Source: Octopus vulgaris (Eukaryota). Taken from it: a DNA stretch of 64,000 nucleotides. Shown one piece after another: positions 34,614-55,064 of the stretch. The position numbers and the translations under genes are program-made. The number at the start of each line of letters is the position of its first letter. Position 1 is the first letter of the stretch. The stretch is from assembly GCA_951406725.2 (NCBI GenBank), contig OX597825.1, forward strand, positions 69,378,001 to 69,442,000, given 5' to 3'. The notes under the pieces are model-generated. The model was given only the letters and a program-made list of their open reading frames with translations. It was not told the DNA's origin and did no database searches.

Positions 34614-36076
34614 TGATTGATTGATTGATTCTAGTTTCAGCTTATGAGCTGTGGCCATGCTGGGGCACCGCCATTTGGTGTTGCTACTTGGTTTCACTTC
34701 ATGGAGGCTTTCTAGCAACTGCTATTTAGTGCATGAGAGAGTTCGATGCAGCTGCCCTCATCTGCCCCTCCTGCCGTGAAGTTGGTTCATCTGGGACACC
34801 TGACAGGAAGAGATCCAGCTTCATTTTAAAGACATCTGTATCCACCCCATGCAGGTCTCTCAGGTTCTTCGGGAGGATATTGAAGAGCTGTGGGCCTCGG
34901 AAGCCCAGGCTATCACAGAATCTTGTCCTACATCTTGATGGCAGGTTTGGAGTCCTAGGCACCACGCAGTGGCGCCCAGTTCTGGCATTTGCGTAACTCT
35001 CGATGCCAAAGTTCAGGACACTTCCCTCCAGGATCTTCCAGATGTATATTATGGCATATCTTTCCCGCCTACGCTCCAGGGAATATAATTTTAATCTCTT
35101 GAGTCTTTCCCAGTAGCTTACATTCTGCATAGAGGCTATCTTCTTTGTGTAGCTTCGTTGGATCGCCTCAAGTTCTGTGATCAACTTGACACTGGATGGT
35201 GACCATAGCTGAGAGCAATAGTCAAAGTGGCTTAGGACAAGTGTCTTCCAGAGGACCATCATGGTTTCTTGTTCTCTTGTTCTAAAGGTTCTAAGAATCC
35301 ATCCAGCCAGCCGTCTACATTTCATTGTCAGTTTAGCAACATGTACATGAAAGGTCGCGTCATCACTCATGTGAATACCAAGGTCACGCACTGATTGTGC
35401 CTCTGGGATTGCAATCCCTCCGGGTCCAGTGTATTCATTGGGTATTGCATTCAGTTTTGCATGCTGATAGTATAAAGCTTGAAACTTTCCAGCATTGAAC
35501 TGCATGCTATTCTTTTCAGCCCACTTGTATATTTCGTCCAGCTCACATTGCAGGTGTTTAGTGTCCTCAGGGTTCTGTATTGCCTGTGAGACTTTTGTAT
35601 CATCTGCATAACTTGTGATCGTGGCTCTCTGCGTGGCTGAGGGCATGTCTGAGAGGGCCATTATGAACAGTAGTGGTCCCAGAACAGTGCCCTGCGGAAC
35701 ACCGCTCACTATTTGTGTGTTAATGGAGGTGGCCCCATTGGCTACTACCACCTGACTTCTATCCTTCAGAAAGTCATGAAGCCATTCTCCCAGTTTTCCA
35801 ACTATGTTGAGATCACGCAGTTTGTGACATATCATTCCATGATCGACTTTATCAAAGGCCTTTGCAAAGTCGAGATATATCACTTCCACATTTGAGTGGT
35901 TGAGCAGCCGTTTCAGCACCCAGTCATAGTGTTGTAGGAGCTGAGTTAAACAGCTTCTCCCTGGTCGGAAACCATGTTGGGTGTCGGGCAGCAAGTCATT
36001 CTCTTCAAGGAAGGTGATCAGCTTCCTTCTGACTATTCGTTCCATGACCTTGCTGATGTGTGAGGTCAGAGAGGTC
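34611..36076 (-). mobile_element. Young 5'-truncated CR1-group LINE with (AATC)n tail, inserted in (TA)n
   Basis: Uninterrupted RT frame, 3' UTR with stem-loop, tail gattgattgatt on + strand, TA tracts on both sides. Confidence 0.92.
34726..36076 (-). CDS. LINE ORF2 fragment: reverse transcriptase plus C-terminus (5'-truncated)
   Basis: QHGFRPGRSC, YLDFAKAFDKVDH, GVPQGTVLGPLLF, YADDTK, VRDLG, LYSLERRRERY; the first ~22 aa of the ORF-track entry come from SINE/microsatellite sequence. Confidence 0.9.
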
Positions 36077-36099
36077 ATATATATATATATATATACATA

Positions 36100-36350
36100 C
36101 ACGTGACGTGCTTCTTTCAGTTTCCGTTTACCAAATCCATTCACAAGGCTTTGTTCGGACCGAGGCTATGATAGAAAACAGTTGGTCAAGGCACCACGCT
36201 GTGAGACGGAACCAGAAACCATGCCTTTGGTAATCAAGCCTTTTACCACACTGGAATTTTTGCAAGATATTAAACAGGTGTGGTCCTTTGATTTCCAAGG
36301 TATTGCAGTACCTGGTCCTTTCACTAGACGGGGTCTTAAACCCCCACGCA
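36100..36350 (-). mobile_element. SINE family B head (36100-36253) and an older fragment of the same CR1-group LINE (36254-36350)
   Basis: PSSERTRYCNTLEIKGPHLFNILQK aligns to PSRCRTRFCDSLGFRGPQLFNILPK of the 472-aa ORF. Confidence 0.75.
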
Positions 36351-48251: not shown

Positions 48252-48467
48252 ATCCTTTCTACTAAAGGCACAAGGCTTGAAGTTTTGGGGGAGGGGACTA
48301 GTCGATTACACCGACCCCAATGTTTCACTTGTATTTATTCTATCGACTCCGAGAGAATGAAAGGTGAAGTCGACCTCGGCAGAATTTGAACTCATAACGT
48401 AAAGACGGACGAAATCTTGCTGAGCATTTTGCCTGGCATGCTAAAGATTCTCTCGGCTCGCCACCTG
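48252..48467 (-). mobile_element. SINE family A
   Basis: ggcacaaggc...ggggagggactagtcgattaca...gtcgacctcggcagaatttgaactc. Confidence 0.85.
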
Positions 48468-48468
48468 A

Positions 48469-48515
<47 letters not shown>

Positions 48516-49479
48516 TAAAACATGAAGAAGAAGAAGAAGATGAAGAAACAACAAAAGCTATAAAACAAATGAAATCCAAACTAAAAATAGAACAGCAACG
48601 AACCATGATAAAACGATGGCAAGAAAAGCCCCTTCATGGTAAATACTGGACTAAACTAAACGCAAAAGAAATAGACAAAGAAAAATCCCAGCAATGGTTG
48701 AGAAGCTCAGGACTCAAAGCAGAAACAGAGGGATTTTTAATTGCAGCACAAGACCAAAGCCTCCCCACCAGAAATTACCAAAAACATGTAATGAAAAGAA
48801 ATATTACAAGTAACTGCAGAATATGTGGAGATGGACAAGAAACAATAAATCATATTATCTCTAGCTGCCCAGTCCTGGCTAAGAAGGAATATATTCACAG
48901 ACATGACAGAGTTGGAACCTACATACATTGGAAGCTATGCCAACATTATGGAATAACAACAGAAAAAAGATGGTATAGGCACACACCAGAAAAGGTCACA
49001 GAAAACGAGAAAGCAACCATACTCTGGGATATGCCGATACACACAGATAGATAAATTAAGGCCAACAGACCAGATATAGTTGTCAGAGATCATGAAGAAA
49101 AAAATGCTTTCTAATTGATGTATCAATACCGGCTGATGACAACGTGTCTCTAAAAGAAATGGAGAAACTCTGAAAATACAAAGACCTGGAAATAGAGGTA
49201 ACTAGAATGTGGAATCTGAAAACAGAAACAATTCCTATCATAGTAGGTGCATCAGGCATGATAAAAAATATTCAGACAAATACATAACAAAAACACCAGG
49301 ACTTACAAACACATATAACATACAGAAAATTGCACTACTAGGCACTGCACACATCCTACGCAGAACACTTTCCATACAATAACCATCAGAGCATCACAAC
49401 AAATCACAGCACATACCCAAGGCACACAGAGCTGTGCTCGGTAGTGAAGTGAAAGCACGCTATAAAAATAAAACTACTG
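48516..49479 (+). mobile_element. R4/Dong-type LINE 3' part inserted in (TAA)n
   Basis: WQEKPLHG, LKAETEGFLIAAQDQ, CCHC knuckle CRICGDGQETINHIISSC, RHD, NRPDIV...IDVSIP...EK..KYKDL restriction-like endonuclease; in-frame stops near 49052 and 49171; (TAA)n on both sides. Confidence 0.93.
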
Positions 49480-50987: not shown

Positions 50988-51759
50988 AATTAATTGTTAT
51001 CGCCATATTAATATGGCATTCTTATAGATATAAGAATAATCGCTGCCGCTGGCCAGCTCTATGAGGCCACCGCCATCAAGATAGCTATTGATACACGATC
51101 TGTATCCATTATAACCTTCGAACAAGGGAGGTCAGCCGCTTCACACTGCCAGTCCGACAGCTACAGACGCGTTTCGGGGTATTGCCCCTTGTCAATGTAG
51201 CGCAGTCAGACCCGCAGGTGTCGCCACTGACGTCTCTCTTCGAAGGTTTCTATTTACCTAGTTTCAGTGGAATACATCCACTTGTTTTCAATAATAGAAA
51301 TATTAAAATTACTAAGTCTCTATAAAAGAGATTACGGCAGCGTTTACTGGAAATTAATTGTTATCGCCATATTAATATCGCCATATTAATTTCTATTATT
51401 GAAAACAAGTGGATGTATTCCACTGAAACTAAGTAAATAGAAACCTTCGAACAAAGACGTCAGTGGCGAAACCTGCGGGTCTGACTGCGCTACATTGACA
51501 AGGGGCAATACCCCGAAACGCGTCTGTAGCTGTCGGACTGGCAGTGTGAAGCGGCTGACCTCCCTTGTTCGAAGGTTATAATGGATACAGATCGTGTATC
51601 AATAGCTATCTTGATGGCGGTGGCCTCATGGAGCTGACCAGCGGTAGCGATTATTCTTATACCTATAAGAATGCCATATTAATATGGCGATAACAATTAA
51701 TTTCCAGTAAACGCTGCCGTAATCTCTTTTATAGAGACTTAGTAATTTTAATATTTCTA
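50988..51759. mobile_element. Inverted pair of a circularly permuted 364-nt hammerhead-bearing monomer (retrozyme-like) within (TA)n
   Basis: Left arm repeats aattaattgttatcgccatattaat at 50988 and 51352; right arm repeats tttcta at 51390 and 51754 (both period 364); hammerheads at 51160-51201 (-) and 51489-51530 (+). Confidence 0.85.
51489..51530 (+). ncRNA. Type I hammerhead, U3-A8 core variant
   Basis: gctaca-TTGACAA-ggggcaatacccc-GAAAC-gc-GTC-tgtagc; stems I and II perfect, palindromic ACGCGT stem III. Confidence 0.8.
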
Positions 51760-51798
<39 letters not shown>

Positions 51799-51849
51799 AG
51801 TATGTATATATATACATATATGTACATACTTCCATATATATATATATAT

Positions 51850-52270
51850 AAAGTTAATCCAAACAAGAAAGCACAAAAAAACACAACAACGCGAGGACGT
51901 GGAACAAATAGAGCATTATTGGACGCTCAGGAAAGAAGGATGTATGCATATATGGTTACAGGACATCTTAAAACGTAAACAACATGAAATAGGATGTCGA
52001 ACAATATTTTTCGAACAACGAGAGAAACAAATGGAAAACAATACAAGTAACATAAAAAACGACCCTTCATCAGTTGTCGGCTGTTTATATATTTCAAATT
52101 TTGAGCAATTCACGACAATATGTGTCTTCGATAAAACAGTTTCTCCCGCAGCCAAAATATAATTTGGGATTTTCAGAGGGTGAAAACAGGACAGTGAAAA
52201 CAAATAGTGAGGGCCGGTAGGCCATAATACGAAGTAAGGTGGTGAACGCTTGAGGGACAATGTTTGGCAG
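51850..52270 (-). mobile_element. Two abutting Penelope-like 3' fragments between TA tracts
   Basis: 51850-51940 matches the tail of 27325-27518; 51945-52270 ends like 22238-22380 (gtcctgta...tatatgcat) and contains CTGATGA at 52067-52073. Confidence 0.55.
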
Positions 52271-52288
52271 GAGAAAAGATAGGAGAAG

Positions 52289-52353
<65 letters not shown>

Positions 52354-52369
52354 CATGCATACATATACA

Positions 52370-52515
52370 TACGACGGGATTTCACTTTGTGTCTACTAAA
52401 TCCATTCACAAGGCTATAGTGAGAGACAATTGCCCAATGGTCCAGGCAGTGGGACTGAACCTGGATCAATGTGGTTGGGAAGCAAGGTTATTACCATTCA
52501 CCCACGTCCGCGCCT
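52370..52515 (-). mobile_element. SINE family B head half
   Basis: tacgacggg...aaatccattcacaaggc...cagtgggactgaacc. Confidence 0.75.
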
Positions 52516-52547
52516 ATATATATACATATATATATCTATCTATCTAT

Positions 52548-52614
<67 letters not shown>

Positions 52615-52721
52615 TATATATATACACACATATATATATACACACATATATATATATACATACATATATACATATATATATATATACACACATATATATA
52701 TACCCAGATATATATATATAT

Positions 52722-52798
<77 letters not shown>

Positions 52799-52809
52799 CA
52801 CATATATAT

Positions 52810-53253
52810 ATAAAAAAGAAGTTTGAAAACGCGACTATATAAGATAAATTTTAATTTTATTTGAAATTTTACATGTTTCGGTTCTTCTTGAAAAAACGAA
52901 TCTTATCAAAATTATTTTAAAACGTGAAGTGTAATAAAAAAGTTCATAGTTGTTTCTTACTGGTCTCAACAGAATCGTCCTATGTGTTCGAATACAACTA
53001 AAGAAAAATCTTTACTTTTTCTTTAGTTTTATTCGAACACATAAGACAGCTGTTATACTTACTCCCCACAAAATAAAAACAACGTGGATTCTGTTGAGAC
53101 CAGTAAGAAATAATTATGAACTTTTTTATTACACTTGACGTTTTAAAATATTTTTGATAAGGTTCGTTTTTTCAAGAAGAACCGAAACATGTAAAATTTC
53201 TAAGAAAATTAAAATTTATCATATTTAGTGGTGTTTTCAAACTTCTTTTTTAT
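52810..53253. mobile_element. Head-to-head inverted pair of an AT-rich hammerhead-bearing element within (TA)n, with a nested inner palindrome
   Basis: Arms 52810-52976 / 53087-53253; inner arms 52977-53011 / 53017-53048; attt-TTGATAA-ggttc...gaacc-GAAAC-at-GTA-aaat at 53150-53197. Confidence 0.8.
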
Positions 53254-53285
53254 AAATATATACCTACTCGTATACGACCTACACT

Positions 53286-53321
<36 letters not shown>

Positions 53322-54133: not shown

Positions 54134-54342
54134 GGGTAATCCCTCGCCATATCGCGGTTCACCTATTGCGTTTTACCTATCGCGCTTCACCTATTGTGGT
54201 TTATTATTCAAACTTACGTCGATCCCTCTGCGGTGTTGTTTTGCATTTATAGTAAAATGCATATATACAAATTTTAACAGTAATAGAAAAAATATACAGT
54301 ACAGTACTGTTTCTACTTCACGGATTTTCACCTATTGCGGTG
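54134..54342 (+). mobile_element. pogo/Tigger-like MITE remnant
   Basis: gtaatccctcgccatatcgcggttcacc start with repeated ttcacctattgcg subterminal motifs. Confidence 0.55.
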
Positions 54343-55064
54343 TTTTAATATAAAAGTGAAAAGGAAATATAGGTGCTCGAAATTAGACTTAAAATCCCTT
54401 AGAGCGCTGCGACAAAGCATTTTTATCAGATACCGACAGGAGGCTAGATCATTATAGTAGACTAGTTTCGCTTGAAAATTACAAACTTATCTGTAGTGGC
54501 TACTCGATTCCTGGATGGTTAAGCTAAATCCTACTTGTCAGCATATAGTATTTACCGTATGAATTTATAGCCGATTCAGCAAAATGGTAATGTGAAAATT
54601 ATACAATAATGAAAGCAGCTATATGCAATATAAAACCAAACAGCTATATCCCCACACACACATACACACACACGCACATCAGAATTGTGCAATAGAAGCA
54701 ACCATATAATGAAAACATAATACCACATGGGAAGCCAATGTGGTATTAAAGAAGCTTTATAATGGATGGTATTTAGGGATTCTTGTAGTCAGTAATAATG
54801 TATCGAAAATTGTAGCATCAAATATGTGCTTCTTTATATCAGGCAGTCGGCTATGTTTGAGAGAGATTTAGCTGTTGTTTCTAATAGGTCGAATAATTTT
54901 GTAAATGACTTTGCAGTCATGAGCATTCCATTTTTGTCGCAGATATGACAATTTTAGGACAACGTTGTCTAATTTTTTTTCTGTATATATTTTTTTCAAA
55001 AGAACAAAATGGCAGCTGGGCAGAAATTTGACCTGTTATTTCTTGCAAGTTGTCAATTGAAGTT

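Follow-up and report, generated by a model that had tools for sequence, protein, structure and literature searches.

Two dispersed repeat families, A and B, are inserted close to each other in a stretch of 64,000 nucleotides from the genome of Octopus vulgaris (hereafter the window, to whose first letter all plain coordinates refer). Both probably carry Penelope-borne minimal type I hammerheads in which a family-wide U3-A8 pair likely stands in for C3-G8 and is likely kept by selection on the master RNA. The presence of U3-A8 in Penelope hammerheads and the escape of such motifs from standard searches are already published for Schistosoma mansoni (Cervera and De la Pena 2014, PMC4209133), which leaves this main claim with small weight as a discovery. 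Of interest beyond it are the majority status of U3-A8 in the genome and a subfamily of a third repeat, family E, that combines a U3·G8 wobble with U17.

Hammerhead motifs and insertions in the window

All four motifs, A and B with their mirrors on the opposite strand (Table 1), contained N3-U4-G5-A6-N7-N8-A9, G12-A13-A14, A15.1-U16.1 and H17. Helices I and II with the G10.1-C11.1 pair were present in both A motifs and in the forward B motif; the B mirror is mismatched in both (A·C in stem II, A·A in stem I). The core positions given in the sequence-only reading were correct; its description of the stems as intact fails for the B mirror. The palindromic helix III is predicted to form between molecules in dimers. 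A hammerhead descriptor matched three times in the window and in none of 200 block shuffles; the motif it missed was the B mirror. Rfam hammerhead models gave no match at the gathering threshold or at E values up to 10. Four loci with C3-G8 motifs were likewise without a hammerhead match, so the core alone does not account for the Rfam miss. Judged from the sequence, both sites are hammerhead motifs, with self-cleavage predicted after H17.

Table 1 Features of the two insertions (window coordinates)
Feature	Position	Strand	Basis or details
Family A repeat, inverted copy of about one unit	50988-51381	-	98% to tandem copies in L012; 3' end faces left microsatellite
Family A repeat, one full 362-364-bp unit	51389-51763	+	97.6% to L012; 3' end followed by TA/TG microsatellite
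Inverted repeat I1, arms	50988-51301/51389-51702		97%
Hammerhead motif A, minimal type I	51489-51530	+	sequence, descriptor, cofold, covariation in relatives
Motif A stem I	51489-94/51525-30	+	6 bp
Motif A core, U3 to A9	51495-51501	+	TTGACAA (UUGACAA in RNA)
Motif A stem II	51502-05/51511-14	+	4 bp; GAAA present
Motif A palindrome	51518-51523	+	ACGCGT (ACGCGU in RNA); H17 is C, predicted cut after C51524
Hammerhead motif A mirror, minimal type I	51160-51201	-	U3-A8 core 51195-51189; sequence identical to + copy
Family B, Penelope-like element 3' end, inverted truncated copy	52802-52976	-	91% to L060
Family B 3' terminal repeat (pLTR end)	53023-53319	+	91.6% over 297 nt to L060; 81% to L102; ends in TA microsatellite
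Inverted repeat I2, arms	52802-52976/53087-53261		93%
Hammerhead motif B, minimal type I	53150-53197	+	sequence, descriptor
Motif B stem I	53150-53/53194-97	+	4 A-U pairs
Motif B core	53154-53160	+	TTGATAA (UUGAUAA in RNA)
Motif B stem II	53161-65/53179-83	+	5 bp
Motif B palindrome	53187-53192	+	ACATGT (ACAUGU in RNA); H17 is A, predicted cut after A53193
Hammerhead motif B mirror, decayed	52866-52913	-	core 52909-52903; both stems mismatched

As each mirror belongs to a long inverted repeat as one of its two arms, the window holds two insertions rather than four independent motifs. Both are arranged head-to-head with their 3' ends in TA-rich microsatellites, an arrangement usual for Penelope elements (PMC8557442), and truncated family B copies in inverted arrangement also occurred at other loci. 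A read-through RNA of the window was predicted to fold both motifs into long hairpins with a stem II probability of 0. Given this burial and the single sense motif per strand in each element, the copies in the window are likely inert.

Family B and its relative C

Family B is a dispersed repeat with 1,273 first-look candidates genome-wide. Its repeat lies 3' of an ORF with reverse transcriptase (RT) and C-terminal GIY-YIG domains at L060, L053, L047 and other loci; in L060 it lies downstream of the end of the GIY-YIG-like ORF. A young sister family (L102) contains a 781-aa ORF, open in many of its copies, with matches to a C-terminal GIY-YIG domain and, at E 1e-6 and so slightly short of the curated cut-off, to RVT_1. 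A CX4CXXC linker and CCHH-type residues were read from the sequence of this ORF; a CX2-5CXXC linker and CCHH are features of Neptune-type endonucleases (Craig et al. 2021, PMC8557442). Family B and its sister thus share with EN+ elements of the Neptune clade the RT with C-terminal GIY-YIG, the linker and CCHH-type residues, the inverted truncated copies and the TA-microsatellite flanks. On this evidence family B is the 3' end of an EN+ Penelope element, putatively of the Neptune clade as judged by motifs. Pieces of a different Penelope-like element with a weak GIY-YIG match lay beside family B copies in L067 (2145-4242) and L046; by its motifs it may be Naiad-like.

Family C (L136, L147-L169) is a third Penelope family with U3-A8. 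Its ORF is 67-68% identical to that of B, yet the repeat DNA of the two families barely aligned in profile searches (best E 2e-4 to 9e-3). The subfamilies of B and family C all keep UUGANAA, while their stems, loop II and H17 differ.

Family A and its relative A'

Family A had 1,912 first-look candidates in the 2.8-Gb genome, dispersed both as single units and as arrays with a unit spacing of 364 or 362 bp, the latter reaching five units. These tandem, ORF-less units of the 150-400-bp class, each with a type I hammerhead, fit what is described for non-LTR retrozymes of metazoans (Cervera and de la Pena 2020, PMC7229834; Li et al. bioRxiv 10.64898/2026.07.22.740005), of which those of mussels have units of 350-390 bp. 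Family A, retrozyme-like in its genomic units, differs from them by its U3-A8 core and its Penelope-type inverted insertions; retrozymes accumulate as circular RNA. Parts of its repeat were covered by contigs from three runs guessed to be RNA and from one other run, a result neutral on expression.

Because no ORF was found beside any copy of A, A' or E examined, we infer rather than observe the driver of family A. An autonomous partner was sought in 70 motif copies set in one orientation, some of which came from overlapping loci; past the tandem or inverted units they had no long 5' extension in common. The same search gave a weak RT match in L219 (E about 1e-3). An ORF remnant in L011 was rejected as a partner because a microsatellite separates it from the A copy.

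A' is an older relative of A (76% identical). Its motifs carried U3-A8 in 37 of 40 cases, C3-A8 in two (both arms of L192) and U3-G8 in one, the query. A C3-G8 ancestor of A was ruled out on this count.

The proposed route of spread would begin with the pairing of the palindromes of two units as helix III in one transcript, giving a double hammerhead that is cut after H17. For natural arrays of A the predicted fold was a double hammerhead, in which helix III between units had a probability of 0.83-1.0 (L171) or 0.58-0.82 (L012); the corresponding values of an E array were 0.46-0.58. In the B dimer prediction stem I (3-4 A-U pairs) did not form. Cutting at H17 would free unit-length RNA, which may then be circularised or used directly (compare PMC4209133, PMC6765202). 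A Penelope RT/endonuclease could copy this RNA into TA microsatellites and so leave head-to-head truncated pairs.

Positions 3 and 8 across the genome

When positions 3, 7 and 8 were left free, the family patterns, which favour young copies, gave 304 matches for A and 154 for B genome-wide. Among the matches listed, U3-A8 was found in 100 of 100 for A, with C, A or U at N7, and in 97 of 100 for B; the other three B motifs had C3-A8, U3-G8 and U3-U8, and C3-G8 occurred in none of the 100. U3-A8 is therefore the norm of both families and not a product of copy decay. This tabulation, which the sequence-only reading had proposed as a check, ruled out a C3-G8 consensus.

A pattern accepting four cores was then applied to the whole genome, with the reversed pattern as control. 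It matched U3-A8 4,970 times (control 98), C3-G8 648 times (control 91), U3-G8 380 times (control 100) and C3-A8 131 times (control 130). U3-A8 is the majority core in the genome under the pattern used, and about 85% of the control-subtracted matches were without C3-G8; the pattern demands GG after A9, which makes the C3-G8 ratio specific to it. Families A, B or C accounted for 95 of the 100 U3-A8 matches listed, with C the most frequent (46 of 100), and family E for 62 of the 100 U3-G8 matches listed. The 100 C3-A8 matches listed held no dispersed family; apart from five in a single local run, they were scattered copies. Families with C3-G8, D and F, do exist in the genome; their protein placement consists of one RT remnant at 31-33% in L114, with none in eight further D and seven further F loci. 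L146, considered as a swap inside a C3-G8 family, was discarded since the 5' strand of its stem I is lost.

The expectation that CUGANGA searches would overlook these elements was borne out: such a search misses most of the pattern-matching motifs in this genome. Hammerhead censuses fixed on CUGANGA can thus miss the majority class of a genome. The U3-A8 hammerheads of Schistosoma, about 1,300 in the Cercyon Penelope-like elements, were likewise missed by a first CUGANGA descriptor (PMC4209133). The octopus families share with Cercyon the minimal type I motif in Penelope terminal repeats, the palindromic helix III and U3-A8, as well as mostly single truncated copies and opposite-strand pairs 100-700 bp apart. 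They differ in their short helix II (4-5 bp) and in lacking an additional base between positions 9 and 10.1. The ratio of U3-A8 to C3-G8 also differs, with 4,970 to 648 by our own pattern against about 1,300 to 2,000 in PMC4209133. Perreault et al. (2011, PMC3088659) found covariation from C3-G8 to U3-A8 in nature and describe such variants as already known to be active in vitro; the octopus motifs have it in common with them, here in animal retroelements.

Age and origin of the U3-A8 core

The sequence-only reading took A and B for unrelated families, each with its own double change. Under this explanation C3-G8 would have turned into U3-A8 independently in the two families, a convergence selected for catalysis. 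It is possible, though we consider it rather doubtful. Profiles of A, A' and E found no similarity to B or C, the genome does contain C3-G8 families (648 pattern matches), and U3-A8 in Schistosoma and in prokaryotic hammerheads, as described in the sources cited above, implies that the pair arose more than once somewhere. Against it, neither A nor B turned out to have a sister with C3-G8; U3-A8 is the core in A' as well as in C and the B subfamilies, and A offers no protein by which to place it. The relation of B and C further shows how little the missing DNA similarity proves about separate origins, for their ORFs are clearly related and their repeats only weakly aligned, so that repeat DNA loses its homology fast while the core stays. 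An independent change in A and B is not demonstrated, as B shares U3-A8 with the related family C and A with A'. U3-A8 is old in both lineages.

Probable selection on the fold

Through the 3-8 pair the 2'-OH of residue 8 is positioned for catalysis, and a U-A pair has the same shape as C-G. Against easy activity, deep mutagenesis of one type III hammerhead showed rescue of the core only by the swap to G3-C8, other double mutants being low in activity (PMC9901934).

Selection was assessed in an alignment of 35 of the 50 A and A' motifs listed, from which 13 identical rows and two with a broken end of stem I (L198, L220) had been left out; 34 distinct rows were scored. In this alignment 94.1% of the cells pair, compared with 85.5 +/- 0.9 after shuffling and 28-57% in slid controls, and two-sided changes occurred in 40 cells versus 12.1 when shuffled; these shuffle statistics ignore the relatedness of the rows. 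The palindrome centre was U-A in 23 rows, G-C in nine and A-U in one. Two-sided changes affected seven pairs, a count not above the shuffles (72 of 500 as high). U4, G5 and A6 were invariant on all rows, and N7 varied freely. Inserted copies decay neutrally, so the compensatory changes in stems and palindrome around a constant core likely go back to master elements under selection for the hammerhead fold.

The identity of the U3-A8 pair is weaker evidence for selection than this conservation of the fold. C-to-U (C-to-T in DNA) and G-to-A are the commonest directions of mutation, and since both changes follow them, the double change alone says little about selection. The earlier argument, that a double change preserving the pair points to selection for catalysis, is weakened by this and by the U3·G8 subfamily of E.

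Family E and the U3·G8 wobble

Family E forms tandem units of 357 bp (loci including L176-L191 and L194) and is distantly related to A and A', a similarity that persisted when the hammerhead was masked (best E 9e-8 to 6e-3). All of the 100 listed of its 289 matches had U3; positions 8 and 17 were G8/U17 in 79, G8/G17 in one, A8/C17 in 18 and A8/U17 in two. Divergence is about 4% within each of the two subfamilies, U3·G8/U17 and U3-A8/C17, and 8.8% between them. Position 8 thus changed in a master element without position 3, which left a wobble pair. Because the U3·G8/U17 subfamily spread, a strict Watson-Crick pair between positions 3 and 8 is not needed for spread; a looser pairing rule fits, as no C3-A8 family appeared among the matches listed. 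U3·G8 as an intermediate from C3-G8 is unsupported, given that A, A' and the sister subfamily are all U3-A8, and a derived state is more likely; the tree of E is confounded by flanks and gives no direction of change. The limited literature covered contained no published retroelement family with U3·G8. Natural U3 with G8 occurs in hammerheads of halophiles, there with a two-base insertion, as cited in PMC7151607.

The spread of the U3·G8/U17 subfamily bears on a second explanation, in which pairing of dimers or recognition by the RT would be what maintains the fold, catalysis would be weak or could be dispensed with, and U3-A8 drifted in by AT-biased mutation. In its favour are also the Naiad elements, which proliferate without canonical hammerheads and for which PMC8557442 calls the role unclear, and the low activity in vitro of metazoan minimal hammerheads, which cleave poorly even as dimers (PMC4209133). 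We regard it as unlikely, since invariant U4, G5 and A6 with a free N7 in A and A' are the pattern of a catalytic core, H17 was C, A or U in the families examined, and the C3-A8 matches listed yielded no family. A third reading, in which C3-G8 hammerheads decayed copy by copy into U3-A8 cores or the matches arose by chance, has the general frequency of C-to-T and G-to-A changes in its favour and can practically be dismissed in view of the near-uniform U3-A8 in the A and B matches listed and the empty shuffles. Family-wide U3-A8 maintained on the master RNA is the reading retained here.

PMC8557442 calls it unclear whether spread of the element requires cutting by Penelope-type hammerheads, and the sister subfamilies of E are natural substrates for this question. 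A broader scenario seems improbable to us: the abundant Penelope-type elements of this genome would have largely shifted to a U3 core, and of the two equally young subfamilies of E the wobble one would be a weakened ribozyme that spreads through being cut in trans in mixed dimers, having palindrome and stem I in common with its Watson-Crick sister; the different palindromes of A, B, C and E would then serve as a family pairing code. The centres of the ACNNGT palindromes are GC in A, AT in B, CG in C and TA in E, all four options (L136, L190 and the window). Four different picks of four have a chance of 0.09, and TA recurs in A' as well as in E; this diversity is therefore a lead only.

Other retroelements and repeats

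An L1/Tx1-type LINE, with a zinc-knuckle ORF1 and an endonuclease-RT ORF2, was found inside A and E repeats at four loci (L062, at G000:C2:114466000-114474500, L271, L272 and L244), in the same orientation in all. Its target duplication of about 17 bp ended 8-16 nt upstream of the hammerhead core at the three loci where both ends were read. The window itself contains open frames of other retroelements with RVT_1 and zf-RVT domains at 34729-36165 (-) and 48398-49051 (+), neither with a tblastn match to this hammerhead-targeting LINE at E 1e-5. A short stretch at 52380-52515, presumably SINE-like, lies between microsatellites, and short imperfect direct repeats with a spacing of 14 nt occupy 54150-54347.
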